From positions 1 to 60,520 of the IMG/VR virus record IMGVR_UViG_3300044621_001247: a stretch of DNA of 60,520 nucleotides. The stretch is one strand, 5' to 3'. Shown piece by piece: positions 40,150-57,802 of the stretch. Under the pieces are notes generated by a model, which had not been told where the DNA came from, searched no databases, and saw nothing but the letters and a program-made list of their open reading frames with translations. The number at the start of each line of letters is the position of its first letter. Positions within the stretch are counted from its first letter, which is position 1. The stretch comes from a virus (taxonomy: Duplodnaviria; Caudoviricetes). Made by a program: the position numbers and the translations under genes.

Positions 40150-42141
40150 ATGAAACCAGGCGAAAGAGAAGCCATAAAGTATCAGGCTGAGTCGCTGGGC
40201 AAGATGCTCAGGTTCAACCTTGGAAGCGCGATCCTCACGGGAGGCATCGGTGCTGCCGGTGCGTTAGGTCGCCTTCCTGGCGCAAGGACGATCAGGGAAA
40301 GCCTGGAGATTCGGAAGCGAGAACGCTACTTTCAGTCCGGACGAGACGAGCAGGGCAGGAAACTCACCAAGAGGGAACTACAGGACAGGGAAGCGCAGAG
40401 ATCTGACATGGGCGCGTTGGGATACCTCCGAGAGGTGTTCGAGGATTCGTGGGGATTCAAGGGCAAGGGCGCGGAAAAAGGGGCAGTTCCCGTCAGGTTT
40501 TCCGATGCCGGTATCGACCAACTGAAGGAAGCATTCAGCGAACTCTCCCAGGTTCTGGGGGGAGTCGATGAAAAGGCAGATGCGGCACTTGCGGGGATCG
40601 GCACGATCCGGACTGCTCTGGGCGTATACGGAGGAGAGTCTTCTTCCGATCCGTCTTCCATCACAGCCCCGACACCACCTCCGGTCGCAGACACGGCAGC
40701 GAAGGAAGCGGCGGTTGAGAAGGACCGCGAGGACGACAAGGACGCGGCAACGAAGGAAGCGGCGGTTGAGAAGGAGCGCGAGGACGACAAGGACGCAGCA
40801 GAAGCCGCAGAGAAGCAGGAAGGTCTGTTCGGCAAGTTGATAAAGGCAGTCAAGGACAGCAAGGAAGAAGGAGGAGGGCTGTTTGGACTGATAGCAACGG
40901 CTATCGGCGGGTTTGCATCGATGGTGGCAGGAAAGTTCGGATTGCTGCTGGGCAAGATAGCACCGATACTGACCATACTCGGCAAGATCGCGGGATTCTT
41001 CGGATTGAAGGGAATCTCTGGCGCTCTGTCTGGTGCTGCTAAAGGAACCGCGACTAGTGCTGCTAAAGGCACGGCTGCGGGTGCTGCGGGCGCGGCTGAA
41101 GCGGCAAAGAAGCCAGGCATCATGTCGCGCATGGCATCGGGAATAGGACGGGGTGTCAAGGGAATCGGTTCGATGCTTGCCAAGACGGGAATAGGTCAGA
41201 CAGCCATACAGGCTGGTTCTGGTCTGGTCCAGGCTGGCAAGTTCGCAGGAAAAGAGATGCGCTACCTGGGAAACGACATAGCGGGAGCCGCAAAGAGCGC
41301 AGCAAAGCCAGCGGCAGGATGGCTGTCCAGCGCATGGAATGCCACAAAAGGCTTTGGATCCCGTGCCGTGGATGCGGTGGCAAGGTTGAACCCGCTCAAG
41401 TACATCAAGAACCTGGCATCGACTCAAGGACCGAAGTTGCTGAAAGGATTGACATCGGTTCCTGCAATCGGTGCTGCAATCGAAGCGATAATAGGTGCGC
41501 TCGACATAGCGAGCGTCAAGGGGGACGAGACCATGTCTCCCGACGAGAAGAAGACTAGGATAGGGCAAATCGTCGGAAAGACGATAGGAAGCGCACTGGG
41601 CACGGTCGGAGGATCGGTGCTTGGAGGCGCAGTGGGATCGTTGCTGGGTCCAGGACCAGGAACCGCAATCGGGTCCATAGCGGGAGCCATGGGTGGAAGT
41701 TGGCTTGGAGGAACTCTTGGCGAAGCCCTAGCCGATGCGCTTGGACCAAGGGAGATCTACGACATACTGGAGTCCATTCCTGGAATCGGAAGTCTGCTGC
41801 GGGTCGATGATGAGAAAGAGACTGCTCCTATGACGGAGGCATCCAATCCAGTCACAGGATCGGCTGCTTCATCCGTTGGACAAGACTCATCGCAGTCGAT
41901 TCCAAGCCGAGTGGACGCTCAAGTGGTGGATGCAAGACCGACGATGGGATCCAATGCATCTTCCATGATGCAGGAGAACTCCATGCTGAGGACGACCCCT
42001 CAGCCTCAGCCCAAGCCAGCCACGACGAACATTGCAGACAACAGGGTGTCCAACAACGCTACGATGCTTTCGGCTCCGTCAGCCCGCATCGGAGGAGCAA
42101 ACCAGACTGCCACCTTCAACGGACTGATGGCACTCGCATGA
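40150..42141 (+). CDS. Tape-measure-like protein (gp29 position)
   Basis: Ala/Gly-rich helical protein with hydrophobic GxxxG tracts, immediately after gp26/gp51. Confidence 0.65.
   Translation: MKPGEREAIKYQAESLGKMLRFNLGSAILTGGIGAAGALGRLPGARTIRESLEIRKRERYFQSGRDEQGRKLTKRELQDREAQRSDMGALGYLREVFEDSWGFKGKGAEKGAVPVRFSDAGIDQLKEAFSELSQVLGGVDEKADAALAGIGTIRTALGVYGGESSSDPSSITAPTPPPVADTAAKEAAVEKDREDDKDAATKEAAVEKEREDDKDAAEAAEKQEGLFGKLIKAVKDSKEEGGGLFGLIATAIGGFASMVAGKFGLLLGKIAPILTILGKIAGFFGLKGISGALSGAAKGTATSAAKGTAAGAAGAAEAAKKPGIMSRMASGIGRGVKGIGSMLAKTGIGQTAIQAGSGLVQAGKFAGKEMRYLGNDIAGAAKSAAKPAAGWLSSAWNATKGFGSRAVDAVARLNPLKYIKNLASTQGPKLLKGLTSVPAIGAAIEAIIGALDIASVKGDETMSPDEKKTRIGQIVGKTIGSALGTVGGSVLGGAVGSLLGPGPGTAIGSIAGAMGGSWLGGTLGEALADALGPREIYDILESIPGIGSLLRVDDEKETAPMTEASNPVTGSAASSVGQDSSQSIPSRVDAQVVDARPTMGSNASSMMQENSMLRTTPQPQPKPATTNIADNRVSNNATMLSAPSARIGGANQTATFNGLMALA
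40700..40801 (+). repeat. 51-nt tandem duplication (KEAAVEKDREDDKDAA x2)
   Basis: 40700-40750 and 40751-40801 are near-identical. Confidence 0.95.
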
Positions 42142-42529
42142 TGCCTTCCTCCGTAGTGTAGTGGATCTGGTCGAAGACCTTCATGCACCACGGGAGGCAC
42201 TTGGGGCATGGTCTGGACATGCGCATCTCCCCCTTGCGGTTGAACCTGAAGTTCCACAGTTCGATGTCCTCGCGGAGATCGCACCTCAGGAAGGCATCGA
42301 GTTCCGAATGGACTTCGTCGAAGAGGTAGCCGTGCTCGACTGCCATGGGATGTGTCTTGAACCTGTTCGTCCCCCATGCCACGATCCTGTTCTTGTGCAG
42401 GATCAGGCTGCAATGCTTCTTCTTGCGGGGAACATCCATGCACTTCTCGAAGGCAAACCTGAGAAGACGCTGATGTCTTTTGGGAAGTTTGTGACTTCCC
42501 TGTGATACTGAGATACTCAATGGTTCCAT
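42116..42529 (-). CDS. Zn-dependent cytidine/adenosine deaminase-fold protein
   Basis: HSE...SRPCPKC matches HxE/PCxxC; H....L...N.IVA.G.N N-terminal motif. Confidence 0.85.
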   Translation of the reverse strand: MEPLSISVSQGSHKLPKRHQRLLRFAFEKCMDVPRKKKHCSLILHKNRIVAWGTNRFKTHPMAVEHGYLFDEVHSELDAFLRCDLREDIELWNFRFNRKGEMRMSRPCPKCLPWCMKVFDQIHYTTEEGIMRVPSVR

Positions 42530-42697
42530 GATCTAAGTACTGGTATCTCGAGAAGGGGTCTTCTCAATCAGGACACAGTTAGATATGTCGGGCAGAAGAC
42601 GCATCGGGAAATGATTCTGATCGAATCGAAAAGAAAGATTGGATCCCCATCCACCAAAATGATTCTCGTCAAAGTAAGGTTCATTTGACCGAACGGC

Positions 42698-43561: not shown

Positions 43562-43636
43562 GTGCCGTGGGAGGTCTTGGCATCCTCAGCCTGATTTATA
43601 AACAGGTAAGAACAGGTTCGATTCCTGTACGGCATA
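43562..43636 (+). tRNA. tRNA-Ile(TAT), atypical
   Basis: Acceptor GTGCCGT/ACGGCAT, D stem GAGG/CCTC, anticodon arm CCTGA-TTTATAA-ACAGG (A31:A39 mismatch), T arm ACAGG-TTCGATT-CCTGT. Confidence 0.8.
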
Positions 43637-43717
43637 CATCAACAACCGACCGTGCGCCATGTGGATCCACGCACGGTTCGGAGACTACAAGGATCCACTG
43701 ACTATGGAGACATCGAC

Positions 43718-44086
43718 ATGATTAGGTTTGTTACTGACAGCGAAAGAAGCGGCAAGAGCGTGACTGGTCTGCTTGCCCTCCTTTTCGGCATCGGCTTCTT
43801 CTGGTTCACCTTCCTCTCACCTGAGACGGTGAACTCTGCCACGAAGGCAAACTACTGCCTCGTCGCGGCTGCTTTGTCGTTCGCGGGATACCTGTGGTTC
43901 CGCCTTCAGGAGACGAAGGCATGGCTCGAAAGCGAGGAGAAGGGTCGCAACGATGACCGCAAGGAAAACTACAGCAACGAGTCCATCCGTGGTCTGCACG
44001 ACCGCATCGACCGCCTTGAGGAGCGTTCCAAGTGCAAGAACGGCGGCGGGTGCATGGCAGACAACGAAGACACATTCGGATTGTGA
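43718..44086 (+). CDS. Two-TM membrane protein
   Basis: SD GGAG; two hydrophobic helices and a charged C-terminus. Confidence 0.7.
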   Translation: MIRFVTDSERSGKSVTGLLALLFGIGFFWFTFLSPETVNSATKANYCLVAAALSFAGYLWFRLQETKAWLESEEKGRNDDRKENYSNESIRGLHDRIDRLEERSKCKNGGGCMADNEDTFGL

Positions 44087-44178: not shown

Positions 44179-44250
44179 GCGGATGTAACTCAGAGGTAGA
44201 GTCTCGGTTTTCCAAACCGATGGTCGTGGGTTCAAATCCCATCGTCCGCT
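44179..44250 (+). tRNA. tRNA-Gly(TCC)
   Basis: TCGGT-TTTCCAA-ACCGA anticodon arm; complete cloverleaf. Confidence 0.95.
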
Positions 44251-44251
44251 T

Positions 44252-44322
44252 TGCGAGTGAGTGAGACGGCAACACACTAGGCTCATAATCTAGGGAAATG
44301 GGTTCGACTCCCATACTCGCTA
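44252..44322 (+). tRNA. tRNA-Met/Ile2(CAT), atypical
   Basis: CTAGG-CTCATAA-TCTAG; T arm ATGGG-TTCGACT-CCCAT; 1:72 mismatch. Confidence 0.85.
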
Positions 44323-44324
44323 TT

Positions 44325-44398
44325 GTGACTGTAGAACAAATGGATAGTTCAGGAGATTGTGATTCTCCCCGTTGCGGGTTCAAGTCCCGCCAGTCACC
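44325..44398 (+). tRNA. tRNA-His(GTG)
   Basis: GGAGA-TTGTGAT-TCTCC; acceptor GTGACTG/CAGTCAC, C73. Confidence 0.93.
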
Positions 44399-44410
44399 CT
44401 CTGTGATAAC

Positions 44411-44481
44411 TGCCCGATTGTGTAATGGTAGCACCCGAGACTCTGATTCTCGTTGTCCTGGTTCGAGTCCAGGTTGGGCAA
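44411..44481 (+). tRNA. tRNA-Gln(CTG)
   Basis: CGAGA-CTCTGAT-TCTCG. Confidence 0.93.
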
Positions 44482-44488
44482 CTTTTCC

Positions 44489-44560
44489 GTGGGGATAACT
44501 CAGTAGGTAGAGTAGCGGACTGAAAATCCGTCAGCGAAGGTTCGATTCCTTCTCCTCACA
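44489..44560 (+). tRNA. tRNA-Phe(GAA)
   Basis: GCGGA-CTGAAAA-TCCGT. Confidence 0.94.
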
Positions 44561-44561
44561 T

Positions 44562-44632
44562 TGGTCTGTAGCACAACGGTAGTGCGCCGTCCTGTTAGGA
44601 CGGGGTTACAGGTTCAAATCCTGTCGGACCAG
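44562..44632 (+). tRNA. tRNA-Asn(GTT)
   Basis: CCGTC-CTGTTAG-GACGG, G73. Confidence 0.93.
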
Positions 44633-44633
44633 T

Positions 44634-44706
44634 TGGACTGTGGCTCAGTAGGCAGAGCATTCCCTTGATAAGGGAGAGGTCGTTGGTTCGATTCCAACCA
44701 GTCCTA
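44634..44706 (+). tRNA. tRNA-Ile(GAT)
   Basis: TTCCC-TTGATAA-GGGAG. Confidence 0.92.
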
Positions 44707-44712
44707 TTCGAC

Positions 44713-44795
44713 TGATCGTTTCCCGAGCAGCAAAGGGGAGAGTCTGTAAAACTCTTGGTCTTCGACCTTCGTAGGTGCAAGTCCTACACGATCAA
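44713..44795 (+). tRNA. tRNA-Tyr(GTA)
   Basis: AGAGT-CTGTAAA-ACTCT, long variable arm GGTC-TTC-GACC, T loop TGCAAGT. Confidence 0.88.
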
Positions 44796-44804
44796 CTTCA
44801 GAGA

Positions 44805-44878
44805 CGGGACATGGCTCAGTTTGGTAGAGCGTTCGCTTTGGGAGCGAGATGTCGCAGGTTCAAATCCTGCTGTCCCGA
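44805..44878 (+). tRNA. tRNA-Pro(TGG)
   Basis: TTCGC-TTTGGGA-GCGAG; CGG...CCGA acceptor. Confidence 0.95.
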
Positions 44879-44888
44879 TTGTGTGTCT

Positions 44889-44960
44889 GCCCTCATAGTA
44901 TAGCGGCTATTACCGTTGATTTGTAATCATCAGACCTCAGTTCGATTCTGAGTGGGGGCT
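44889..44960 (+). tRNA. tRNA-Thr(TGT)
   Basis: GTTGA-TTTGTAA-TCATC; GCC...GGCT acceptor. Confidence 0.92.
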
Positions 44961-44969
44961 TTCAAAAAC

Positions 44970-45101
44970 CTTCCTCTTGCCTGTAATGCGCAAAGGCTCA
45001 AGTAGAGGAGAAAATGGAGAACACCACTCCATTGTGGGTTTCGCGGAAAACGGATTGGGTACTTGCAAAGCCCTACCGAATGTTCCAAGGTTGTCCCACC
45101 A
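44970..45101 (+). ncRNA. Unidentified structured RNA within the tRNA array
   Basis: Three consecutive stem-loops; the last is closed by GTGGG/CCCAC and ends in CCA. Confidence 0.4.
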
Positions 45102-45105
45102 GTTC

Positions 45106-45179
45106 GGTCTAGTAGATTAGTTGGCTAAATCGTTGGACTTTCACTCCAAAGACCGTGGGTTCGACTCCCACCTAGATCA
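45106..45179 (+). tRNA. tRNA-Glu(TTC)
   Basis: TTGGA-CTTTCAC-TCCAA. Confidence 0.93.
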
Positions 45180-45186
45180 TTCTTCC

Positions 45187-45549
45187 ATGCCATGCTATGC
45201 AATCTCCATCCGTGAAGACACGCAGCACCTCCTCAAGGACGGCGGGGGATACCTCTTCTACAGGAAGAAGTCCCTTGCCGTCGAGGTCTGCGATGAGATG
45301 AATGCCCTGCGGAAGGGAATGAAACTGGAGCAGGTCTATTCGGTCTGCAAGGTGGACGAGAAGGATTGGAAGGGATACCCCTTCACATACGACAAGGAGT
45401 TCGATGATGACGGTTCCAGAGGAGATGTTCAACGCTATACGAAACGCACGGCACTTCATGCTGGCACTGATGGATCCAAAGCAGACTCCAAAGGTTCCAA
45501 GAGAAGTCCGAAAGAGGGCAAGGGACAGACTCAGGCACTTCCCTTCTGA
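45187..45549 (+). CDS. Hypothetical protein (start re-called after tRNA-Glu)
   Basis: MPCYAISIRED...; 3' part overlaps the next ORF. Confidence 0.55.
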   Translation: MPCYAISIREDTQHLLKDGGGYLFYRKKSLAVEVCDEMNALRKGMKLEQVYSVCKVDEKDWKGYPFTYDKEFDDDGSRGDVQRYTKRTALHAGTDGSKADSKGSKRSPKEGKGQTQALPF

Positions 45550-45751
45550 GTTCGACATCAGCGAGATGGAAAAGTTCCATGCCCTCAGGGATCAGGATCC
45601 AAACATCCTTTTCGGAGAGTGCATGAAGAGGCTTGACTCCATCCGTGGGGAGATTACCATAGCGGAGCGAAAGTTGAGCGATGTCGGCAACGACATCGTG
45701 ACCGCGATCAGGAACACCAGAGGAGGCAACGATGCCCAACAGCAAGGCTAG
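45404..45751 (+). CDS. Phage hypothetical protein
   Basis: MTVPEE...TPKVPREVRKRARDRLRHFP motif; SD AAGGAG. Confidence 0.72.
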   Translation: MMTVPEEMFNAIRNARHFMLALMDPKQTPKVPREVRKRARDRLRHFPSEFDISEMEKFHALRDQDPNILFGECMKRLDSIRGEITIAERKLSDVGNDIVTAIRNTRGGNDAQQQG

Positions 45752-45998
45752 GAATGTCGCGAGGAAGCACCGCAAGTCCAGGATTCGGTGGAAGAACAAG
45801 AACAAGGCAAGCCTGGCTCTAGCCAAGGACAAGGCATCGAAGCCCAAGAAGAAGGTCTCGGTGTTCGACAGGGCAAGGGCGGCACAGCAGAATGTTCCCC
45901 TGTCGGGGGCAACCCCGTCTGCCGTATCTAACCCGACAGGGGAACGCCGCACCGCTTCGATGATGACTTTCGACGAACTCAAGGCAACTGGAGGCTGA
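45732..45998 (+). CDS. Basic hypothetical protein
   Basis: SD GGAGG; Lys/Arg-rich. Confidence 0.65.
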   Translation: MPNSKARNVARKHRKSRIRWKNKNKASLALAKDKASKPKKKVSVFDRARAAQQNVPLSGATPSAVSNPTGERRTASMMTFDELKATGG

Positions 45999-45999
45999 G

Positions 46000-46269
46000 A
46001 TGGAAAAGACACAGATGGTCGAGTCCCTTCACCGTGGAATCTGCGAGGTGGTGTTCACCAAGGCAGACGGCACGGAGCGCACCATGAAATGCACACGGTC
46101 GCAGAGCCATGCTCCCATTTCCGTTCCCGCATCCAACCTCCTGACTGAGGACGGGTCGGTCGGACCCGATGTCATTCCCGTGTGGGATGTCGAGGCAGGG
46201 CAATGGAGGTCGTTCAACGCGAAGTCGGTGAAGTCCTTCCGCTCCGTTGGTTCGTTGCTGAACGGATGA
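46000..46269 (+). CDS. WYL_2 / Sm-like SH3 beta-barrel protein
   Basis: V.FTKADGTERTM.CT...VWDVE...WRSF motif. Confidence 0.82.
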   Translation: MEKTQMVESLHRGICEVVFTKADGTERTMKCTRSQSHAPISVPASNLLTEDGSVGPDVIPVWDVEAGQWRSFNAKSVKSFRSVGSLLNG

Positions 46270-46276
46270 GCGAGTC

Positions 46277-46540
46277 GCCCCTCTAACTCAATGGTAGAGT
46301 AACGGACTTTCAAATGGAACTGCCGTGCAGGAATGCACGGATCGAATCTTGTCAAAGTCGGTGAACTCCCTGTCGAAAGACGAGACAACGCCGAGCCAAG
46401 CGCAGCGATGCGAAGGTGTAGAGACTTGACGGCAAGCACCCAGAACGGGTGAAGGCAAAGTCCAGACCACGAACGGAAGGCGGCGAAAGCCGAAGTGGTA
46501 GGTAATCCGTCAGTTGTGGGTTCGAGTCCCACGGGGGGTA
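46277..46540 (+). tRNA. tRNA-Lys(TTT) split by a group I intron (exons 46277-46310 and 46503-46540)
   Basis: Joined exons give GCCCCTC...ACGGA-CTTTTAA-TCCGT...GTGGG-TTCGAGT-CCCAC-GGGGGGT-A. Confidence 0.9.
46311..46502 (+). ncRNA. Group I intron (IC3-like, 192 nt, no ORF)
   Basis: P (CAAAGTCGGTGAA), Q (AACGCCGAGCCAAG), R (GGTGTAGAGACTTGACG) and S (GAAGGCAAAGTCC) core elements; follows U and ends in G; P1 guide TGGAA. Confidence 0.93.
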
Positions 46541-46544
46541 TTGC

Positions 46545-46626
46545 GCCAGCGTGGCGGAATGGCATACGCAGGATGCTCAAAACATCCGGATCCTAGATCG
46601 TGCAGGTTCGACTCCTGTCGCTGGTA
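46545..46626 (+). tRNA. tRNA-Leu(CAA)
   Basis: GGATG-CTCAAAA-CATCC, long variable arm. Confidence 0.94.
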
Positions 46627-46638
46627 TTGGAGGAACAC

Positions 46639-47010
46639 ATGCAGACACAGAACATGACCAAGACAGAACTCATCGAAAACATCGAAATCCTCGCGGAAAA
46701 GTGCGAGAAGTTGATCGCCGAACTCGCGCAGCGCACCGCCGCTCTTGATCAAATGACGGTTCACCGCAATGCGACGATAGAACATCGAGACATCACGCAG
46801 CAGGTGCTAAACGGTATCACCGTTGCGTTATCTCAGCGCACCGCCGACCTCGCCCGCGTGACCGCCGAGCGCGACGAGGCGCGGCGGTGGGTGTGCAGAA
46901 AGACGGTCTACGCAGAAAGGAAACCCCACGATTTGGTTGATTCCACCGAAGCAAAGGTTCTCCTCGAAGCACAGATGCGCGGCTGGGACTGCTTCGCAAA
47001 GGAGGGGTGA
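46639..47010 (+). CDS. Coiled-coil hypothetical protein (TAERDEARR...RGWDCF family)
   Basis: SD GGAGG; shares DNA blocks with the next ORF. Confidence 0.75.
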   Translation: MQTQNMTKTELIENIEILAEKCEKLIAELAQRTAALDQMTVHRNATIEHRDITQQVLNGITVALSQRTADLARVTAERDEARRWVCRKTVYAERKPHDLVDSTEAKVLLEAQMRGWDCFAKEG

Positions 47011-47303
47011 TGAGCGACTTCCCCGAGATCACCACCGAGCAGATCGTGGCTCGTCTCCGCATGATCGTCGCAGAGCCAGATTCGCTCTGCAAGACCGACA
47101 TTCACTACATAGAGGACGCTGCTGACGAACTGGAGAGCAAGGGCGACGAGATCGCCCGCCTCACCGCCGAGCGCGACGAGGCGCGGCGGGAACTCTGCCA
47201 GTTGAAGTCACGATTGGGAGCGGACTACTACGTTCCATCATTGAATCCCGAGGGTTACGCCAAAGTGCGCGGCTGGGACTGCTTCGAGGAGGAAGGCAAG
47301 TGA
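47007..47303 (+). CDS. Hypothetical protein (TAERDEARR...RGWDCF family)
   Basis: GTGA-coupled paralogue of the previous ORF. Confidence 0.75.
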   Translation: MMSDFPEITTEQIVARLRMIVAEPDSLCKTDIHYIEDAADELESKGDEIARLTAERDEARRELCQLKSRLGADYYVPSLNPEGYAKVRGWDCFEEEGK

Positions 47304-47548
47304 GCAACAAACCAGACATCGTGCATAGACTAGAGCGACAACCGCTATTCGTCACCCACGAAACATTCGGCAATCCTGTTTGCTGCGTGATGACGAGCGA
47401 GACTTGCAAAATGAATCAAGAGGAGCGCATGGAGGCTGCATCGGAGATCAAACGCCTCCGCGCCGACCTCGAGAAAGTTCGCACAGAGCGCGACCAAGCG
47501 TTGTGGGAATCAACACAGGACTTCTGGGGAAAGACAAGTGACTACTGA
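47300..47548 (+). CDS. Hypothetical protein (DIV.RL...EAA.EI.RLR type)
   Basis: GTGA-coupled. Confidence 0.7.
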   Translation: MSNKPDIVHRLERQPLFVTHETFGNPVCCVMTSETCKMNQEERMEAASEIKRLRADLEKVRTERDQALWESTQDFWGKTSDY

Positions 47549-49849: not shown

Positions 49850-49853
49850 CTTT

Positions 49854-50159: not shown

Positions 50160-50168
50160 GGAGGTGGC

Positions 50169-50176: not shown

Positions 50177-50194
50177 AAGTAGGAGAACCACCAA

Positions 50195-50554
50195 ATGTAC
50201 ATAACCAGCCTTCTCACTCTTCAGAACCAACTTCGCATATTCCATTGGCAGACCACATCGTATGCGGAGCATGAGGCATTCGGAAAGGCATACGGAGATC
50301 TAGGAGACCTGATCGACACATTCATCGAGACGATGATGGGAAAGAAGGGGAGGATCCTCTCCAGCGGTGGATTCAGCATCCACCTCACCAACTACCGCGA
50401 GACTGATCCCGTGGCATTCCTCAAGCAGTACGATACCTACCTCACATCGCTGGACGACGAGTTGTTGGAAGGAGACACGGAACTCAAGAACATCAGGGAC
50501 GAGATGAAGGGCGTGGTGAACCACACAATCTACCTGCTCACCCTCAACAAGTGA
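50195..50554 (+). CDS. Ferritin/Dps-like four-helix protein
   Basis: FHWQT.SYAEH.A...Y..L..LID.F.E...G...NIRDEM...YLLTL. Confidence 0.82.
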   Translation: MYITSLLTLQNQLRIFHWQTTSYAEHEAFGKAYGDLGDLIDTFIETMMGKKGRILSSGGFSIHLTNYRETDPVAFLKQYDTYLTSLDDELLEGDTELKNIRDEMKGVVNHTIYLLTLNK

Positions 50555-50832
50555 GCAAACGACATCGTTGATCTTTGCATACTACCTGGTCACACGGGGG
50601 TTCGATACCCCCCGACTCCATTCAAACCTACGGGGTCGAACTGGAATCGACGGCTAGATGTTCGCAACAGGGAGATGTCCGAGAGGTCGCTGACAACCCT
50701 CGTAAAATCCCAATGTCGGCAACCATAAACGCCGCGAACATGCGGATGGCTGCTTGAAGCAGTGGGGTCCGATCCACCCGCGACTGAACGGATCATCGGC
50801 ACAGGGTCTCCGAAAGGAGGCTTTGTGCTTTT
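50555..50832 (+). ncRNA. ssrA: Circularly permuted (two-piece) tmRNA
   Basis: T arm GGGGG-TTCGATA-CCCCC plus CGACTCC-A (50596-50620) precedes GGGGTCG-AACTGGAATCGAC (50632). The acceptor stem has G3:U70. Tag ORF 50719-50757 encodes ATINAANMRMAA*. Outer ends are approximate. Confidence 0.9.
50799..50832 (+). terminator. Intrinsic terminator ending the tmRNA coding piece
   Basis: GCACAGGGTCTCC-GAAA-GGAGGCTTTGTGC-TTTT. Confidence 0.75.
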
Positions 50833-50902
50833 CGGGAAGCCATAGATAGCCATGTACCCGTGATAGTTTCAGAATGGAGTCACCATCATGGAGCAGCCCC
50901 CT

Positions 50903-51346
50903 ATGGCATTCCTCACACCTGAGTTCATCTCCCTCATCGGAGGAAGCCTCGTCGGCTTCCTCTTCCGCCACATGGCAGAGAAGCGGGAGAACGAACGGCA
51001 GATGGTCGAGAACATCATCAACCTCAACAAGCAGTCGAACGAGAACCACGACAAGGCTGTCGAAAGGGTTCCCATCGACATGGGCAAGACCATTCGGCGG
51101 ATCATCGTCCTCGCGGTGCTGTTTGCCACGATGCTTGCCCCGTTCATCCTTCCGTTCTTCGGCATCCCGACCTTCCTCGAGGTGGATCAGTCCAATCCCG
51201 ACAGGCTCTTCGGGCTGATTCCCGCCTACACGCAGAAGTTCATAGTCGAGATCAACGGGTTCATCTATCCATCCGAGAACAGGCAGATCCTACTGAGCCT
51301 CGTAGGCTTCTACTTCGGCAATGCCGCAGGAAAAGGAAAGACCTAA
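50903..51346 (+). CDS. Putative holin (3-TM type)
   Basis: Three hydrophobic segments ending in VGFYFG; CATAGATA late-like motif at 50841. Confidence 0.55.
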   Translation: MAFLTPEFISLIGGSLVGFLFRHMAEKRENERQMVENIINLNKQSNENHDKAVERVPIDMGKTIRRIIVLAVLFATMLAPFILPFFGIPTFLEVDQSNPDRLFGLIPAYTQKFIVEINGFIYPSENRQILLSLVGFYFGNAAGKGKT

Positions 51347-51618
51347 TGCGCACAATCACAGCAATCGTCCTCTCTCTCATGCTCTACGGCTGCTCCGTGA
51401 CCCCGAAGGTCATCCCCGACGAGACCAAGGGAAGCGCGATGACCCGCAAGATCGACAAGGACACGGAGATGGGCAAGCCGTTACAGACTGGATACGGGTG
51501 GATCCTCTGGTACATACCCGTTGTCGTGGTCGCGATGGCTTGGGGATACCGAGAGTTCTTCCGAAAGCCGACTCCAGAGGACGATTCGACTCCCAAGAAG
51601 ACCAAGAGACGCAAGTAG
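51346..51618 (+). CDS. Lipoprotein with C-terminal TM helix (spanin-like topology)
   Basis: Signal peptide with LYGC lipobox; ILWYIPVVVVAMAW TM; basic tail. Confidence 0.55.
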   Translation: MRTITAIVLSLMLYGCSVTPKVIPDETKGSAMTRKIDKDTEMGKPLQTGYGWILWYIPVVVVAMAWGYREFFRKPTPEDDSTPKKTKRRK

Positions 51619-51657
51619 ACGGCTCACGGAGAGGCTTCAACCATCACAAAAGCACCG

Positions 51658-51684
51658 AAACCACAATTCGTTGTGGTTTTTGTG
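51658..51684 (+). terminator. Intrinsic terminator
   Basis: AAACCACAA-TTCG-TTGTGGTTT-TTGTG. Confidence 0.75.
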
Positions 51685-51748
51685 TCAAATTTGACTGATT
51701 TTCCTTGTCCAAAGGCTGTTCTAGGGTCGGTTTTGGTGGTTTTTCGGT

Positions 51749-51845
51749 CGTAAGTGCTTACCAGACCGAAACTTACAACGATTTTCGTCGTTTTGGGGCT
51801 GTTTCGGCTGTCCCTGTGGACAAAACCTTCGGAATAGACGATACT
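51749..51845 (+). promoter_or_regulatory. Palindromic operator plus leaderless sigma70-type promoter
   Basis: CGTAAGT-N15-ACTTACA (51749-51777); TGGACA-N17-GATACT (51817-51845); ATG 6 nt later. Confidence 0.68.
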
Positions 51846-51851
51846 AGTGGT

Positions 51852-52268
51852 ATGGATTCAGGTTCCGACCACGCCCTTTCCCTCTCCCGCCTCTCCGACG
51901 ATGCCATGCAGCGCGGCTATCCCGACAACTTCTCCTCGCAGGAGGAGTGGGATGCCTACAACGAGCGTCTCGACGCTGAGGAGCGCACCGCAGAGCATCG
52001 CGCCCTGCACGGCACGGACGAAGTCGCCGTCAACTACCCCGAGACGGTAGTTCTCCGTGCTGCCGATGGGTGCGAGTCGTGCGGCGGCAAGGGATTCGTG
52101 GTCGAGTCGCACGGCGAGGAGATCGACTGCGACTGCTGCTTCTATGCCGACCTCTCTCCCGACGAGACGGCGGCTGTCGAGATGGGGTCTTACATCATCC
52201 AGCCTTCCGACTCGTATGTCCGCAAGATGGCTGAACGCGCCGAAGTCGAACCCGAAGGAGGCAACTGA
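51852..52268 (+). CDS. Acidic protein with DnaJ-like Zn finger (CxxCxGxG...CxCC)
   Basis: CESCGGKG...CDCC; start re-called at the leaderless ATG. Confidence 0.7.
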   Translation: MDSGSDHALSLSRLSDDAMQRGYPDNFSSQEEWDAYNERLDAEERTAEHRALHGTDEVAVNYPETVVLRAADGCESCGGKGFVVESHGEEIDCDCCFYADLSPDETAAVEMGSYIIQPSDSYVRKMAERAEVEPEGGN

Positions 52269-52272
52269 GAAC

Positions 52273-53223
52273 ATGAGCAAGTACCGCACGAACACGAAGC
52301 ATCCAGTCGCGCCGCCGTACAAGAGCCACCGAACCAAGAGCAACGCCGTGACCGTCCCCGCCAACTCCATCAACCCCGACTACTTCAAGACCGCCCATGC
52401 CCATGAGGGCGTGGTTCGCAATCTCAAGAATGTGTATGGTCCCCTCACTCGCAGCAGCGGGATGAGCGCGTGGCGCGTGTGGGTTCGCATCACGACCACC
52501 GAAGGGTGGGTTCTCATGGGCTACATCGGCAATGCCGCGACCGAGGCTGAACTGCCGAAGGTGGTCAAGGGCGACAAGATCATCCTTGATCCTCTCGTCC
52601 TCTCTTCGTGGCAGCGCGTGGACGGCATGGACGAGCGTCCCGCCGACTTCTCCCGCACCCTGCGCGGCAAGATCGTGCGCGGTGCGGCTGCTGCGGCTCC
52701 CGCGACCGTGCCGCTGACGAACAAGCCTTTGGCTACGGGGGTGTCCTTCACGGCGGCAGTTCAGTCGAGTGTGGCTGCTGCTTCGGCTCCTGCCCCTCGC
52801 CGCCGATCCTCCCGCTCCCAATGGCTGAAGCAGAACGAGGCTCTCCGCGACAGCCTTGCCATCCCCGCGATCTGGTGCCTGACCAACACCACCGACGAGA
52901 GCCACCTGAAGGTCTTCCTGCCGAATGTGTGGAACGGCTCATACGAAATCCGCGAGTACCGCAGGAACGATGCGGGATTGTGGATCTTCCGTGAGGGGCG
53001 TTCGTGCGTCCGCAAGGAAGATGCCGTTGCCCAATGGAAGAGCGACGAGTCCAGCGGCAAGTGGGGCAACCGCCGCAACATCACCAAGTACATCGATGTG
53101 GATGAGATCTTCAATGGATGGGGTGCTGAACATCCCGCCGACAGGTATGCGCGTCTCATCGGCGGCACGGACTTCGTCACCCTCACCGTCACCTTCGGCA
53201 ACTCGTTCCCCCGCAAGTCCTGA
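52273..53223 (+). CDS. Hypothetical early protein
   Basis: SD GGAGG; C-ending codon bias; two domains joined by an Ala/Pro linker. Confidence 0.75.
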   Translation: MSKYRTNTKHPVAPPYKSHRTKSNAVTVPANSINPDYFKTAHAHEGVVRNLKNVYGPLTRSSGMSAWRVWVRITTTEGWVLMGYIGNAATEAELPKVVKGDKIILDPLVLSSWQRVDGMDERPADFSRTLRGKIVRGAAAAAPATVPLTNKPLATGVSFTAAVQSSVAAASAPAPRRRSSRSQWLKQNEALRDSLAIPAIWCLTNTTDESHLKVFLPNVWNGSYEIREYRRNDAGLWIFREGRSCVRKEDAVAQWKSDESSGKWGNRRNITKYIDVDEIFNGWGAEHPADRYARLIGGTDFVTLTVTFGNSFPRKS

Positions 53224-53241
53224 ACGAAAGGAACAGACACC

Positions 53242-53769
53242 ATGAATACGCTCACCTACACCAATTTCCGCGCTGCGCTGTACGATCTTCCCCGTGATGT
53301 GCGGATCAAGTTCGCGCTCTGGTGCATCGGACGCGCCAACAAGTTCGCTTATTCGGATGTCAATCCGCAACTCGCCGTCGTGCATCGTTATCTCGACGGC
53401 AAGGCAACCAAGGAAGAGGTTGCTTCCGCGAGGGATGTTCTCTATCGTTCTCCCGTCTGTTCATCCGTCCGTGCGGTGTATAGCCTTTGCTGCGACATCT
53501 GCGAGGAGAACTCGCAGGGTGAACCTTCATTGGATCAGTCGTGCTTCGGGGCTATCTCCGTCTCTGCGTATGGCGTGTCGTTGGGAGTCGCTGAGAAGAA
53601 GTGGGAGAAGTGGATACTGAAGCATGAGTTTCAGTATCCGCCTCTGAGTTGCGGACGGCAGCAAGAGGAGAGGGCGGGATTTGATGCGATGCGGAAGGAA
53701 GCCCGTAAGAAGGAGCATGCCACGCAGACGAAGGAACTCATTCGACTTCTAGAGGAGACCAAGCGATGA
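53242..53769 (+). CDS. Hypothetical protein (FALWC...YLDG.AT.EE domain)
   Basis: Paralogous N-terminus and C-terminus with the next ORF. Confidence 0.75.
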   Translation: MNTLTYTNFRAALYDLPRDVRIKFALWCIGRANKFAYSDVNPQLAVVHRYLDGKATKEEVASARDVLYRSPVCSSVRAVYSLCCDICEENSQGEPSLDQSCFGAISVSAYGVSLGVAEKKWEKWILKHEFQYPPLSCGRQQEERAGFDAMRKEARKKEHATQTKELIRLLEETKR

Positions 53770-54260
53770 CTGACACCGACATCAATCGTCTGATCGACCG
53801 CCTGTCCGACCGCCAACGCCGAGAGTTCGGGCTATGGTGCGCCGAGCGCATCCGCCACCTGATGACCGACCCGCGTAGCACCGCCGCTCTCGATGTCGTG
53901 GCGCGGCATCTGCGCGGCGAGGCGACCGACGCGGAACTGGCTGCGGCAACGGCTGCGGCGTGGGCTGCGGCTGCGGCGCGGGCTGCGGCGGCGGCGTGGT
54001 CTGCGGCGGCGTGGGCGCGGGATGCGGCGTGGTCTGCGGCAGATGCGGCGTGGTCTGCGGCGTGGGATGCGGCGTGGGCTGCGGCGCGGGATGCGGCGCG
54101 GGCTGCGGCGGCTGCGGCTGCGGCGCGGGCTGCGGCGTGGTCTGCGGCAGATGCGGCTTCGGCTGCGGCGCGGGCTGCGGCGTGGTCTGCGGCATGGGAT
54201 GCAGAACGCGCCGCGCAGTTTGCAGAACTGAACCGTCTTCTGGAGGAAACCAAGCGATGA
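53766..54260 (+). CDS. Ala-rich (xAAW) repeat protein, Imm5-like N-domain
   Basis: FGLWCAERIRHL..DPRS..AL...L.GEAT..EL followed by [SAD]AA[WRA] tetrapeptide repeats. Confidence 0.78.
   Translation: MTDTDINRLIDRLSDRQRREFGLWCAERIRHLMTDPRSTAALDVVARHLRGEATDAELAAATAAAWAAAAARAAAAAWSAAAWARDAAWSAADAAWSAAWDAAWAAARDAARAAAAAAAARAAAWSAADAASAAARAAAWSAAWDAERAAQFAELNRLLEETKR
53939..54203 (+). repeat. 12-nt unit coding minisatellite (e.g. TCTGCGGCGTGG)
   Basis: Variant units repeated in tandem. Confidence 0.92.
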
Positions 54261-54544
54261 CTGACAACAAGAACGACATCTCGTCCCGCATCACCGACCG
54301 CCTCGAACTCGTCCGCGTCGAGACTGCCAACTGCCGTGCAGGTCGCACCTACGGCTTTCCCGACGAGATCAAGGCGATGATCTTGACCAACCTTGCCCAT
54401 GCCCGTTGGAACCGTCCTCTCCTTGACGAAGCGACCAAGCGGCTCCATGATGTCACGGAGTATGAGGTTCGTTGGCAGTTTGGCGACCTCGACCGCCTCA
54501 TTGAGGCAGAAACCGACCGTTTGTCGGAGGAAGAGGGGGATTGA
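54257..54544 (+). CDS. Hypothetical protein
   Basis: ATGA-coupled MTDNKNDISSR... Confidence 0.7.
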   Translation: MTDNKNDISSRITDRLELVRVETANCRAGRTYGFPDEIKAMILTNLAHARWNRPLLDEATKRLHDVTEYEVRWQFGDLDRLIEAETDRLSEEEGD

Positions 54545-54569
54545 CACCATCCCCGCCTTCGGATAGAAT
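54541..54569 (+). promoter_or_regulatory. Strong sigma70-type promoter
   Basis: TTGACA-N17-TAGAAT. Confidence 0.8.
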
Positions 54570-54615
54570 CATACCACTCGACCGATCCGTTTCCCAAACC
54601 TTTCAGGAGAACCTT

Positions 54616-55071
54616 ATGCCGACCAAGACCAAGAAGACCAAGCGCACCGCGAAGACTACCAAGAGCAAGACCAAGGTGGTCGTGACTGCCGCCGTCCGTC
54701 CTGCGGGTCGCTCGACCCGATCCGCCACCGCGTCTGCCATGAGCAGCGGGCTTGCCGCGCTGACCGAGGCAGGATCTCGCAGCACGGCACAGGTGAAGCC
54801 CACGACCGCGTCCAAGCCCAAGTCGGGCAAGGAACCTTCGCTCGTCTTCGAGGCTCCTGCGGTGCAGAAGCACACCCGTGCCGAAGCGGAGGAGGCGATC
54901 CGCGACCTCCGTGCCATCGTCGCCAAGATGTACGGGGACGGCAAGTTCAAGAACTCGGCGGCTCTCATGGTTCCGCTGACCGACATCGACAACGCGACCT
55001 ACTACAAGTCCAGCGGGTGCTACGACCGCAGCATCGACATCTGCAACAAGTGCAAGGACAAGATCAACTGA
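54616..55071 (+). CDS. Hypothetical protein with basic Lys/Thr-rich N-terminus
   Basis: SD CAGGAG; MPTKTKKTKRTAKTTKSK... Confidence 0.75.
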   Translation: MPTKTKKTKRTAKTTKSKTKVVVTAAVRPAGRSTRSATASAMSSGLAALTEAGSRSTAQVKPTTASKPKSGKEPSLVFEAPAVQKHTRAEAEEAIRDLRAIVAKMYGDGKFKNSAALMVPLTDIDNATYYKSSGCYDRSIDICNKCKDKIN

Positions 55072-55123
55072 CACAGCCCGAGCGACAGAAAACCCCGAAT
55101 CAGACCGACAGGAGAAACCCATC

Positions 55124-55483
55124 ATGCCGAACAACAGCAACGACAACAACAACGACATCGTCCCGCCCCTCCACAACATCACCGCCGAGCACAACATCAA
55201 GACGCTCGACCTCGTTGGTGGATTGATCATGGGGAGCATCAAGTCGAACACCCCCATCACCGTGGATCGGCTCCCTCTCATCATGGAGGCAATCGCGCAG
55301 GTTCGCATCTACTGCACCTTCCGCGATCAGAAGGAACTCACGGATGCCAACAGCCTTGCCGTCATCGCATCTGCGCGGGTGCTGCTCAAGCGCGGGATCG
55401 GTTCCAAGCCTTCTGATGCGGAGCAAACCGATGCGGCAGCGCAGGAGATCCTCGCTGACCTCCGCAAGAACGGCATCGGCTGA
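55124..55483 (+). CDS. Hypothetical protein
   Basis: SD CAGGAG; strong codon bias. Confidence 0.75.
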   Translation: MPNNSNDNNNDIVPPLHNITAEHNIKTLDLVGGLIMGSIKSNTPITVDRLPLIMEAIAQVRIYCTFRDQKELTDANSLAVIASARVLLKRGIGSKPSDAEQTDAAAQEILADLRKNGIG

Positions 55484-55510
55484 TCGGACTGCACAACCAA
55501 CATTCGGGTC

Positions 55511-55540
55511 GGAGGGGGCGAAAGCCCCCTCCATCCTTTC
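55511..55540 (+). terminator. GC-rich hairpin, weak U tract
   Basis: GGAGGGGGC-GAAA-GCCCCCTCC-ATCCTTTC. Confidence 0.55.
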
Positions 55541-55558
55541 AAACGGGAGAAACACACA

Positions 55559-55831
55559 ATGAGCGGCAACAACGACATCGTGGAACAGATGTGGACGGAA
55601 CTCCAGTCCTACCAGCCGTTCGCTGACGCGGACGGGCATGGCGACACATGGAGAACCATGTGCGAGAAGAGGACGAAGGAAGCGGCATTTATAGCGGCAG
55701 ATGCGGCGCGCCCGCGTCGGCGTACGCGGCGGGAATGGGCTTGGCGGGCGACTTTGGCGGCGATGACGGCGGCGGATTGTGAAGCATACAAAGCCATCGT
55801 GAATATCCGCAAGGCAAAGGAGGGACGATGA
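55559..55831 (+). CDS. Hypothetical protein
   Basis: SD GGGAG; MW.EL..YQP.AD.DGHG.TW..MC motif. Confidence 0.7.
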   Translation: MSGNNDIVEQMWTELQSYQPFADADGHGDTWRTMCEKRTKEAAFIAADAARPRRRTRREWAWRATLAAMTAADCEAYKAIVNIRKAKEGR

Positions 55832-56097
55832 CACAGACCGAAACCCAGACAGACCAGTACGGGCTTCCCATGACGAAGATGTACACCGTCGAGTACATCG
55901 TCCTGATCGACGGGGAGGAGATGGACGAGACCTACTATGAGATCGTGTGGGCAAGGGATCCGCACGATGCCGCCTACAAGGCTCAGGAGATCTTCTACGA
56001 CAACGAGAGCATCGACGGCACAAGCATGGCATTCAAGTGGGTCGAGGTGTATGAGAATCAGTCAGCGATGAGGAACACCAAGGAGAACGAGCGATGA
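55828..56097 (+). CDS. Acidic hypothetical protein
   Basis: ATGA-coupled. Confidence 0.7.
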   Translation: MTQTETQTDQYGLPMTKMYTVEYIVLIDGEEMDETYYEIVWARDPHDAAYKAQEIFYDNESIDGTSMAFKWVEVYENQSAMRNTKENER

Positions 56098-56558
56098 AGA
56101 AGACCACGAAGAAGAGCAACAAGAGCAGCGTCCGTCTTGTGAACCAGCCGCTTTCCGAATGGCGGGTGGTCGCACGAAAGTACGAGAAGCCTACCCAGGA
56201 GATTTTCGATGAGAATCAACGATGGATTCCAGGTGGTGTCCGTTTCGTGATCTGCAAGGTCTGCTATGACTCGAAGGGAAAGCCCAATGGCATCGTGGAA
56301 TATCCCGACACAACGGTACGGGTGAACTATTCCGACTACGAAGGCAAGGACGAGTTTCAGCGTCCCTTGCACAAGGCAGAGCAGGAGAGCCGACAAAACC
56401 TCAGGGACATGATGAGGGCGTGGCATCTTCCGATCCTTGAGGAGATCGACCGCACGGGAGACTACCGCATCCGCGAGTGGAAGGGAACCAAGGAGTTCAA
56501 CCGACTGGAACGACTGTGCGACTGCCCCAAGAAGACCAAGAGGAAGACCAAGCGATGA
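56094..56558 (+). CDS. Hypothetical protein
   Basis: ATGA-coupled. Confidence 0.7.
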   Translation: MKKTTKKSNKSSVRLVNQPLSEWRVVARKYEKPTQEIFDENQRWIPGGVRFVICKVCYDSKGKPNGIVEYPDTTVRVNYSDYEGKDEFQRPLHKAEQESRQNLRDMMRAWHLPILEEIDRTGDYRIREWKGTKEFNRLERLCDCPKKTKRKTKR

Positions 56559-57802
56559 ATGAACTGAACCCCAACCTCCCGTTCCATACCTTCCATAAGA
56601 ACATCCTCGCGGAAGACGAGCATGAGATCCGCAACCTCGACAGCGTCATGGCTGCGATGAACAGCGTCCTCGACACGCCGACCGTGCTTGAGGCGGCGAT
56701 CATGCCCGATGCCTGTCCCGTGGGCAAGGACGAGATCCCCGTGGGAGGCGTGGTCGTCACCTGGAATGCGATCCACCCCCGAATGCACAGCGCGGATGTC
56801 TGTTGTTCCGTGATGGCTACGGATCTCGGCTATGCCGATCCCAAGATGGTTCTTGATCTCGCACAGGCGGTCACGCACTTCGGGATCGGCGGACGGTCGC
56901 CCGACTTTGAGATCGGTCTTCCCGAAAACCTGAAGGCTCGTATCGAAGCCAATCCGTTCCTCAACAACCAGAAGAGCCTCTTCTGCGCTCAGTCGCACCT
57001 CGGGACGCAGGGGGACGGCAACCACTTCCTGTTCGTCGGTCGCAGCAAGAACACGGGTCGCACGATGCTCGTCACCCACCACGGAAGCCGTGGGTTCGGA
57101 GCGAATCTCTACAAGGAAGGCGTTAGGGTGGCGGAATCTTTCCTGAAGAAGATCGATCCGAAGGTCAATCCCAAGAACGCATGGATCCCTGCGGACACGC
57201 AGGAAGGACACGACTACTGGGAAGCCCTCCAGATCGTCCGCTGTTGGACGAAGTACAACCACATCGTCATCCACGATGTGGTCGAGCAGGTGTCGTGGGC
57301 AGACCGCGTCTCGCGGTTTTGGAACGAACACAACTTCGTGTTCAGGGACGGTGACCGCTTCTATCATGCAAAGGGCGCAACCCCGATGTGCAACAAGTTC
57401 GTCCCCGACTCGATTGATGGTCTGCGCCTGATCCCCCTCAACATGGGACAGCCGATCCTGATCGCCAAGGCGGTTCCCGATGCCCGACTCACGAACGGCA
57501 TCGGCTTCGCTCCCCACGGCGCGGGTCGGAACTTCAGCCGCACGGAACACAAGCGGACGAAGTTGGTCGGCAAGACGGTCGAGGAGGTGTTCGCTGAGGA
57601 GACGGCGGGGCTTGATGTCCGCTTCTACTCGGGCAAGATCGATGTGAGCGAACTTCCTAGTGCCTACAAGGACGCGGAGAAGGTGAAGGATCAGATCCGA
57701 CACTTCAACCTCGCGACCATCGTGGACGAGATCATGCCCTACGGGTGCATCATGGCGGGAGAGATGGAGAAGCCTTGGCAGAAGAAGAAGGAGAGCAAGT
57801 GA
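56555..57802 (+). CDS. rtcB: RtcB-family RNA ligase
   Basis: MPD, D.CC, GTQGDGNHF, HHGSRG, HNF, HAKGAT, HGAGR and E.PSAYK catalytic motifs; start re-called at 56555. Confidence 0.93.
   Translation: MNELNPNLPFHTFHKNILAEDEHEIRNLDSVMAAMNSVLDTPTVLEAAIMPDACPVGKDEIPVGGVVVTWNAIHPRMHSADVCCSVMATDLGYADPKMVLDLAQAVTHFGIGGRSPDFEIGLPENLKARIEANPFLNNQKSLFCAQSHLGTQGDGNHFLFVGRSKNTGRTMLVTHHGSRGFGANLYKEGVRVAESFLKKIDPKVNPKNAWIPADTQEGHDYWEALQIVRCWTKYNHIVIHDVVEQVSWADRVSRFWNEHNFVFRDGDRFYHAKGATPMCNKFVPDSIDGLRLIPLNMGQPILIAKAVPDARLTNGIGFAPHGAGRNFSRTEHKRTKLVGKTVEEVFAEETAGLDVRFYSGKIDVSELPSAYKDAEKVKDQIRHFNLATIVDEIMPYGCIMAGEMEKPWQKKKESK

Follow-up and report, generated by a model that had tools for sequence, protein, structure and literature searches.

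The IMG/VR record IMGVR_UViG_3300044621_001247 comprises 60,520 bases of a tailed virus (Duplodnaviria; Caudoviricetes), and the window analysed here covers all of it. Positions 42116–57802 of the window carry translation-related genes: 15 tRNA genes, including a tRNA-Lys(UUU) gene split by a group I intron, a permuted (two-piece) tmRNA, an RtcB RNA ligase, a protein of the cytidine deaminase fold and a WYL_2 protein. An earlier reading of the DNA letters (the sequence-only reading) named 14 tRNAs, an intron-split tRNA-Lys, a two-piece tmRNA, RtcB, a Zn-deaminase and a WYL/Sm-like protein in this region and proposed that they are coupled into an integrated system against RNA-cleaving host defences. 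Each of the named parts was recovered in the present analysis, and the interpretation is partly supported; the coupling itself is not borne out by comparison with relatives.

The translation-gene region starts immediately past the last tail gene of a T4-like myovirus structural module at 2–40 kb, which contains a tail sheath protein, large and small terminases, gp6-, gp25- and gp5-like baseplate proteins and a tail tube protein (for the baseplate proteins, we assume the T4 gene numbers as labels). No isolate phage matches the gp6-like protein at more than ~34% identity, the best matches being Synechococcus, Pelagibacter and Methylophilales myoviruses, and the lineage is therefore a distant one. 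Scans of IMG/VR returned one locus with the RtcB query and four with the gp6-like query, with no close full-length relative, and the 15.7-kb region, compared with isolate phages by megablast, gave only a 56-nt match to tRNA-Pro. Near-identical DNA is present in many lake-water metagenome runs, and 14 of the 24 listed runs contain at least half of the sampled words. The sole RNA run with any of the region yielded two exact contigs (43688–43934 and 49133–49576), which leave tRNA-Lys, the tmRNA and RtcB uncovered and are hence uninformative on splicing or expression.

Eleven sigma-70-like sites were identified, compared with 6.1 ± 2.4 by chance. Ten of them lie on the plus strand, and they are scattered over 42.7–58.7 kb. 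The T4 late-promoter motif TATAAATA has no match in the window. These putative promoters, together with the opposite strand of the deaminase gene, would spread the parts over several transcription units; the sequence-only reading likewise described the genes as not one operon.

A group I intron in the tRNA-Lys(UUU) gene

The tRNA-Lys(UUU) gene is encoded on the plus strand by two exons that are separated by a 192-nt ORF-less (open reading frame-less) intron at 46311–46502. Exon 1 (46277–46310), the 5′ half, ends with CUUU (...ACGGACUUU at 46310), and exon 2 (46503–46540), the 3′ half, begins with UAAUCCGU at 46503, which places the intron between anticodon positions 35 and 36. When the exons are joined by script, ARAGORN recognizes a 72-nt tRNA-Lys(ttt) whose anticodon stem is fully paired and whose loop, CUUUUAA, is ordinary. 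The Intron_gpI model (RF00028) is spanned in full with 31.7 bits (E-value of 7e-5), below its gathering score of 50, which is the cut-off of a very broad model and not a structural feature. The structural hallmarks of a group I intron are all observed. In an alignment of eight introns, the consensus has 46 pairs; compensatory changes affect 20 of them, in P2, P3, P5, P6a and P8, and support the P3–P9 core by covariation. The last U of the exon can pair with G in P1 to form the U:G pair at the 5′ splice site, and the final base of the intron is G. The same junction (...CUUU/C...G/UAAUCC) occurs in three other viral loci and four bacterial loci. A Thr(UGU) reading, in which splicing occurs one base earlier on both sides, was rejected, as the related intron of locus L026 would then end in A and the U:G pair would be lost.

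The intron is present in DNA and is not an assembly artefact, because a contig from an independent lake-water run spans 44911–46871 with no differences. In run X12, one DNA contig of low depth joins the end of tRNA-Thr to position 46503 via the 36-nt 5′ half of tRNA-Lys. Such an allele lacks the intron and has the very junction that was predicted, for which it is taken as weak support.

The 3′ core motif of the intron matches 15 IMG/VR contigs, and a search of IMG/VR with the exact 27-nt exon/intron junction gave no match. The viral intron family consists of the window copy (46311–46502), L018–L032 and L006. By exon joining, at least 11 of the 15 matched viral contigs have it in a tRNA gene, and four contigs present a protein-coding context. 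The interrupted tRNA is Lys(UUU) in L021, L031 and L026, Leu(UAA) in L018, L025, L024 and L028, Asn(GUU) in L019 and Ile(UAU) in L022 and L027. An HNH endonuclease ORF is found in one member of the family, from an uncultured phage of 595 kb. Among cellular genomes, at least 120 contigs, overwhelmingly from Alphaproteobacteria, contain the 3′ core motif. In most of the 80 cellular loci examined, the interrupted tRNA is Leu(UAA), Arg(CCU) or CAU, and in four loci, from Acetobacteraceae, it is tRNA-Lys(UUU), with a junction identical to that of the window. By these sequence matches, the intron is assigned to a known bacterial, mostly alphaproteobacterial, tRNA-intron family.

Bacterial group I tRNA introns, such as those of cyanobacterial Leu(UAA), Azoarcus Ile and alphaproteobacterial Arg(CCU), are likewise compact (~190–230 nt), ORF-less and located in the anticodon loop; we take their subgroup name to be IC3. 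The window copy differs from them in that it sits in a phage-encoded tRNA gene, and this home is its newest aspect. According to a 2014 review, no phage group I intron was known at that time outside protein-coding genes (PMC3984707). A literature search by title and abstract found no published group I intron in a phage tRNA gene, and a later report elsewhere is possible.

The intron is 95.7% identical to the L026 intron, amid flanking proteins that are only 52–70% identical and in a contig with a GC content of 42%, compared with 54% here. Such identity amid diverged flanks fits either recent lateral movement or strong structural constraint. That phage genes for Lys, Leu, Asn and Ile tRNAs harbour group I introns of the bacterial family bears on the question of how introns with so patchy a distribution pass between bacteria. 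As a tentative proposal, phage tRNA genes could serve as a reservoir and vehicle that spreads the tRNA-intron family among Alphaproteobacteria. The host of the phage is probably itself an alphaproteobacterium, by analogy with the taxonomic spread of the intron family and the permuted tmRNA type.

The presence of RtcB and an intron-containing tRNA within one 15-kb region invites the idea that RtcB joins the halves of tRNA-Lys, as in archaeal and eukaryal tRNA splicing. The intron nevertheless has a group I core, a 5′ splice site with the U:G pair and G as its last base, and it lacks the bulge-helix-bulge context of protein-spliced introns. Moreover, RtcB was found in none of the five viral records with this intron family that were searched whole, two of which are ~90% complete. 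RtcB should not be needed for tRNA-Lys maturation because the intron is of the self-splicing group I type, and a role of RtcB as the splicing ligase, rejected here, is very improbable.

tRNA genes and their anticodon stems

ARAGORN identified 14 tRNAs, every one on the plus strand between 43562 and 49850, and the set amounts to 15 genes when the split tRNA-Lys is counted. The first gene, tRNA-Ile(UAU) (43562–43637), is followed by a tight array of ten tRNAs (Gly-UCC, CAU, His, Gln-CUG, Phe, Asn, Ile-GAU, Tyr, Pro-UGG and Thr-UGU; 44179–44960), tRNA-Glu(UUC) (45106–45179), tRNA-Leu(CAA) (46545–46626) and tRNA-Arg(UCU) (49776–49850). Rfam confirmed 12 of the 14 at gathering scores. tRNA-Ile(UAU) reached 32.4 bits in the E-value mode of Rfam, and tRNA-Tyr is an ARAGORN call only.

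Three of these tRNAs had been described as carrying anticodon-arm mismatches. In the ARAGORN drawings and a stem read-out, A31:A39 in Ile(UAU) and U28:U42 in Thr(UGU) are indeed mismatched, and G31:U39 in the CAU tRNA is also observed, but as G:U is a standard wobble pair, it does not count as a mismatch. In two related viral contigs, G001 and G002, the Ile(UAU) tRNA keeps A31:A39 while the remaining stem differs, and the Thr(UGU) tRNA keeps U28:U42 with a compensatory change at 27:43. Evasion of nucleases by the mismatched stems of Ile(UAU) and Thr(UGU) is possible. The tRNA-Ile(UAU) called by ARAGORN in these relatives is 91 nt (G001, 39940–40030; G002, 7337–7427), longer than is usual for class I tRNAs.

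ATA makes up 31% of the Ile codons of the phage, GGA 44% of its Gly codons and AGA plus AGG 48% of its Arg codons, and the phage tRNAs read all of them. This usage would fit an ordinary supply of codon-matched tRNAs. AAA accounts for 53 of the 680 Lys codons.

A permuted tmRNA next to a DUF5856 gene

The tmRNA gene (50530–50848, plus strand) is called 'Permuted' by ARAGORN, with the 3′ domain at 55–91, the 5′ domain at 103–130 and the tag at 202–228, so that the 3′ tRNA half precedes the 5′ half. The Rfam profile tmRNA_permuted (RF04321) matches positions 50561–50757 with 57.1 bits, above the cut-off of 47. The acceptor stem in the ARAGORN drawing contains an alanine-type G3:U70 pair. The tag ORF has a resume codon and a stop codon and encodes a short peptide ending in AA (AANMRMAA). 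The profile, the order of the halves, the G3:U70 pair and the tag ORF all identify the gene as a two-piece tmRNA.

Two-piece tmRNAs are established in aquatic phages. tmRNA genes were reported in 402 of 18,146 phages, and 53 of the 133 unique tmRNAs were two-piece, 50 of them from aquatic phages; 17 of 47 Melnitz-like contigs contain the two-piece type (PMC9004378). Melnitz and pelagimyophage-type T4-like phages resemble the window in that a permuted ssrA lies among the early genes of an aquatic T4-like myovirus (PMC9004378). The window differs from the Melnitz type in its unusually short tag of eight residues and in the glutamine riboswitch, as an Rfam E-value scan of 42–58 kb yielded neither this riboswitch nor any other regulatory RNA. 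The Melnitz paper contains no mention of RtcB (PMC9004378).

A DUF5856 protein (50195–50554, plus strand; Pfam 1.6e-19; phrog_858, 7e-22) is encoded at the 5′ side of the tmRNA and adjoins it. Its homologue is found immediately upstream of the tmRNA in G001 and G002 and immediately downstream of the tmRNA in loci L179 and L181. The two genes adjoin in three lineages (window, 50195–50848; L021, 6287–6968; L179, 9426–10354), with the permuted tmRNA type here and the one-piece type elsewhere. These arrangements suggest that the DUF5856 neighbourhood may be a recurrent insertion spot at which the tmRNA type is exchanged.

A divergent RtcB ligase

The RtcB ORF opens with GTG at 56477, but translation probably begins at an ATG (56555) that overlaps the stop codon of the preceding ORF; the gene would accordingly occupy 56555–57802 on the plus strand. 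The product matches the RtcB family PF01139 (6.5e-32; 111.7 bits versus a cut-off of 27) and phrog_1075 (5e-81). The GNHF, HHGSRG, YHAKGAT and PHGAGR motifs align with those of Pyrococcus horikoshii RtcB (PHGAGR with the CHGAGR segment), and these motifs and MPDAC are invariant across six homologues. The catalytic motifs thus appear intact in the sequence; our assignment of the GMP-acceptor histidine (nucleophile) is assumed. By sequence, the enzyme would reseal RNA ends that carry a 2′,3′-cyclic phosphate and a 5′-OH. RtcB is common in phages and was detected by tblastn in 475 of 50,697 phage records.

The phage RtcB lacks a ~50-residue N-terminal segment that is common to its cellular homologues, and it falls below both NCBIfam cut-offs for short RtcB proteins (71.5 versus 407 for NF007153, and 45.5 versus 271.8 for the release factor H-coupled TIGR03073). 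Its nearest homologues, in one IMG/VR locus and 11 metagenome loci, are 49–61% identical. Seven of these 12 loci, most of them cellular, were scanned by Pfam, and the neighbours were WYL+WCX regulators in four of the seven, DUF4132/DUF7737 in three, RlaP in two and a true PrfH in one. Five loci with 57–61% identity (L007, L008, L009, L013 and L016) are conserved and contain a divergently transcribed WYL+WCX regulator, a small uncharacterised protein, DUF4132/DUF7737, RlaP and, once, PrfH. From their gene content, these loci may represent an uncharacterised type of RNA-repair operon. The phage protein resembles the RtcB2–PrfH pair (PMC9304027) and the WYL-regulated RtcB loci in that its nearest homologues (57–61%) sit in such loci; it differs in standing alone, in lacking the N-terminal segment and in scoring below the family cut-offs. 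On sequence grounds, it is assigned to a stand-alone divergent clade with tRNA or rRNA as candidate substrates.

The substrate is not to be assumed, because RtcB2 of Escherichia coli (EcRtcB2) repairs damaged 30S subunits (16S rRNA) and not tRNAs, according to the published account (PMC9304027). The phage RtcB could in the same way act on rRNA or another non-tRNA substrate, as the PrfH-coupled RtcB2 does at the 16S decoding centre, and have no functional connection with the tRNA array. In NCBIfam, it matches best the two short models rather than a canonical tRNA-ligase model, and a true PrfH (TIGR03072, 220.9 versus 166.65) is encoded two genes upstream of the homologue in L007 (61% identical). 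On the other side, the TIGR03073 score stands far below the cut-off of the PrfH-coupled family, the phage gene has no prfH neighbour, and PrfH occurs in only the one scanned homologue locus. Pfam scans of the 108 ORFs of 39.9–60.5 kb found no RF-1 domain protein. A ribosomal or other non-tRNA substrate is judged unlikely.

The deaminase-fold and WYL_2 proteins

The deaminase-fold protein (42116–42529, minus strand; 137 residues) has no Pfam, NCBIfam or PHROG match. It contains an HSE...PCPKC motif, and an alignment of 28 homologues shows no variation at H74, E76, P107, C108 and C111. An AlphaFold (AF2) model was obtained with a pLDDT of 82.5, and the top 50 Foldseek matches are all deaminases. 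The matches are led by blasticidin-S, cytidine and dCMP deaminases and TadA (E-values of ~5e-4; TM scores of 0.5–0.6), and the dCMP deaminase of cyanophage S-TIM5 is among them. The deaminase fold with its H-x-E and P-C-x-x-C zinc motifs thus places the protein in the deaminase superfamily, as the sequence-only reading had it. The TM scores of 0.5–0.6 extend to every deaminase subfamily (TadA, dCMP and cytidine) with no separation. Judging from the model, the protein may be a small dCMP or cytidine deaminase; a dCMP deaminase is ordinary for a T4-like phage.

The WYL_2 protein, an Sm-like SH3 barrel (46000–46269, plus strand; PF10902, 4e-13; phrog_1086, 1.4e-18), is encoded directly upstream of the split tRNA, with its stop codon 7 nt ahead of tRNA-Lys. 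Homologues with 43–52% identity are found immediately upstream of the tRNA block that bears the intron-containing tRNA-Lys in L026, L021 and L031.

Co-occurrence of the parts among relatives

The three closest relatives are G001 (containing L021; 56.8 kb), its near-twin G002 (containing L031; 43 kb) and G003 (containing L026; 15 kb, GC content of 42%). G001 and G002 share the gene order WYL_2, Arg, Thr, intron-containing tRNA-Lys, Glu, Leu(CAA), DUF5856, tmRNA, Gly and Asn, and they contain neither RtcB nor the deaminase; their tmRNA is of the one-piece type. G003 has in common with the window the deaminase (58%), WYL_2 (52%, directly upstream of the intron-containing tRNA-Lys), a S-adenosylmethionine (SAM)-lyase-like protein (70%) and others. 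RtcB is absent from all three.

Other sets of relatives gave similar results. Among 58 viral contigs with a DUF5856 homologue, tRNAs were found in nine, a tmRNA in two, the deaminase in two, WYL_2 in one and RtcB in none. The flanking DNA of the 12 loci with the nearest RtcB homologues contains no tRNA or tmRNA, and the Rhizobium T4-like phage RHph_Y65 has no annotated tRNA within 20 kb of RtcB. Only small linkages recur, namely WYL_2 with the tRNA block and DUF5856 with the tmRNA. Co-inheritance or conserved linkage of the full proposed ensemble was observed in no set of relatives, all of them fragments, including the viral intron-family records. The co-occurrence comparison therefore gives the coupling claimed in the sequence-only reading no support, which is an absence of support and not proof of independence.

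Interpretation of the region

The region is best explained, in our view with moderate confidence, as the early-gene side of a T4-like freshwater myovirus, a variable part in which translation genes were collected singly, as a toolkit and not a module. In such a toolkit, the phage tRNAs would supplement or replace host tRNAs, the intron would be a selfish element that excises itself from the pre-tRNA without a ligase, the tmRNA would free stalled ribosomes with host SmpB, and RtcB would reseal broken RNA. The parts would be inherited independently. Each of them plausibly contributes to continued translation in the infected cell.

Several observations weigh against this account. The relatives compared are fragments (CheckV completeness of 9–32% for G001–G003; flanks of at most 10 kb), and RtcB could lie elsewhere in their genomes. 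The persistence of A31:A39 and U28:U42 in two lineages points to selection on the anticodon stems. tRNA-Lys(UUU) is not obviously explained by codon demand because AAA is so small a share of the Lys codons, and this tRNA is the classical target of PrrC and PARIS. Finally, a role of the phage RtcB in damage repair is likely, by analogy, because the nearest cellular homologues sit in dedicated RNA-repair loci.

Some observations lend appeal to a coordinated counter-defence, in which host tRNAs lost to cleavage would be replaced by phage tRNAs (a few of them with altered anticodon arms), cleaved tRNAs would be resealed by RtcB and stalled ribosomes would be cleared by the tmRNA. All three layers lie inside 15 kb, the RtcB catalytic motifs are intact, the stem mismatches are kept in G001 and G002, and tRNA-Lys(UUU) is kept despite the low use of AAA. 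Precedents exist in other phages: T5 tRNA-Lys resists PARIS via changes in the anticodon stem-loop (PMC11464382), and the T4 ligase repairs PrrC-cut tRNA-Lys, as summarised in PMC10264068. On the other side, co-inheritance appeared in none of the comparisons, several putative promoters are scattered over the region and the deaminase gene runs on the opposite strand. The spliced tRNA-Lys has an ordinary loop and a fully paired anticodon stem, the substrate of the RtcB clade cannot be assumed to be tRNA, and PADLOC matched none of 37 proteins to a defence-related family. A coordinated counter-defence thus seems improbable. A narrower version would protect tRNA-Lys(UUU) at three levels, with a fresh supply by self-splicing, resealing of this tRNA or of its host copy by the stand-alone RtcB of a new clade and clearance of stalls at Lys codons by the tmRNA, and would regard the Ile and Thr mismatches as evasion variants. 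It is doubtful, and the reservoir role of phage tRNA genes proposed above is the likelier of the two.

Comparison with known systems

Each part of the region is of a known kind, and the idea of an integrated counter-defence is not new. The closest arrangement is the 'translation takeover' region of Sphingobium phage Lacusarx, which comprises 24 tRNAs, a tmRNA, tadA and rtcB (PMC5648845). As in the window, tRNAs, a tmRNA, a deaminase and rtcB lie in one region; unlike the T4-like myovirus of the window, Lacusarx is a siphovirus, its deaminase can be recognised as TadA and the available text reports no intron-split tRNA in that region. According to the same authors, the linkage is not conserved in the relatives of Lacusarx, and equivalents occur in DSS3phi8 and phiCbK-like phages (PMC5648845).

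A phage RtcB acting against host tRNA cleavage was proposed in 2011, as only the subcluster K1 mycobacteriophage genomes have both a tRNA and RtcB (PMC3203893). These phages differ from the window in being temperate siphoviruses with a single tRNA, and the tmRNA described there is the host integration site (PMC3203893).

The end chemistry of RtcB differs from that of T4 Pnk/Rnl1. T4 Pnk/Rnl1 (against PrrC) and T5 tRNA-Lys (against PARIS) resemble the window in a phage-borne tRNA-Lys(UUU) and/or RNA ligase, and nuclease-resistant phage tRNAs, tRNA-Lys included, are experimentally established in other phages, as described in these two sources (PMC10264068, PMC11464382). In contrast to T4, the 108 ORFs scanned by Pfam include no Pnk or Rnl family member, nor any of the RtcA, archease, SmpB or PrfH families, in a contig that is part of a genome.

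At present, the window mainly adds a freshwater T4-like lineage to the phages in which RtcB, a two-piece tmRNA and tRNA arrays are known. Real coupling of the parts would make them a compact, layered phage counter-defence against tRNA-cleaving immunity that is directly testable with known nucleases. Two leads are of value independently of coupling, namely the group I introns of phage tRNA genes and the stand-alone phage RtcB clade, whose cellular relatives occupy WYL-regulated RNA-repair loci.

Other features of the region

The SAM-lyase-like protein shared with G003 is encoded at 48228–48791 (Pfam, 3.7e-13). Its family is known from phage anti-restriction.

The GC content of the window is ~54% overall and reaches 62% in a block at 52000–56000, which lies between the tmRNA and RtcB. 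The block contains long ORFs on both strands with almost no family matches, the only one being phrog_18326 (53766–54260), and it may be a foreign insert. Within it, positions 53748–54281 show a summed contig depth of 109–231 in three lake-water DNA runs, compared with ~2–15 in most bins, and many variant joints. This pattern suggests either repeated DNA or a sequence that is shared widely. In the same three runs, summed contig depth is elevated over the tRNA bins as well. Several metagenome contig joints have short sides of 21–28 nt, for example 47471 to 55610 and 44247 to 49822.

Downstream of RtcB, the window encodes a destabilase-type lysozyme (58202–58642) and a CobS-like AAA_5 ATPase (58763–60082; phrog_249, 7e-90). 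The lysozyme is common to the window and G001–G003.

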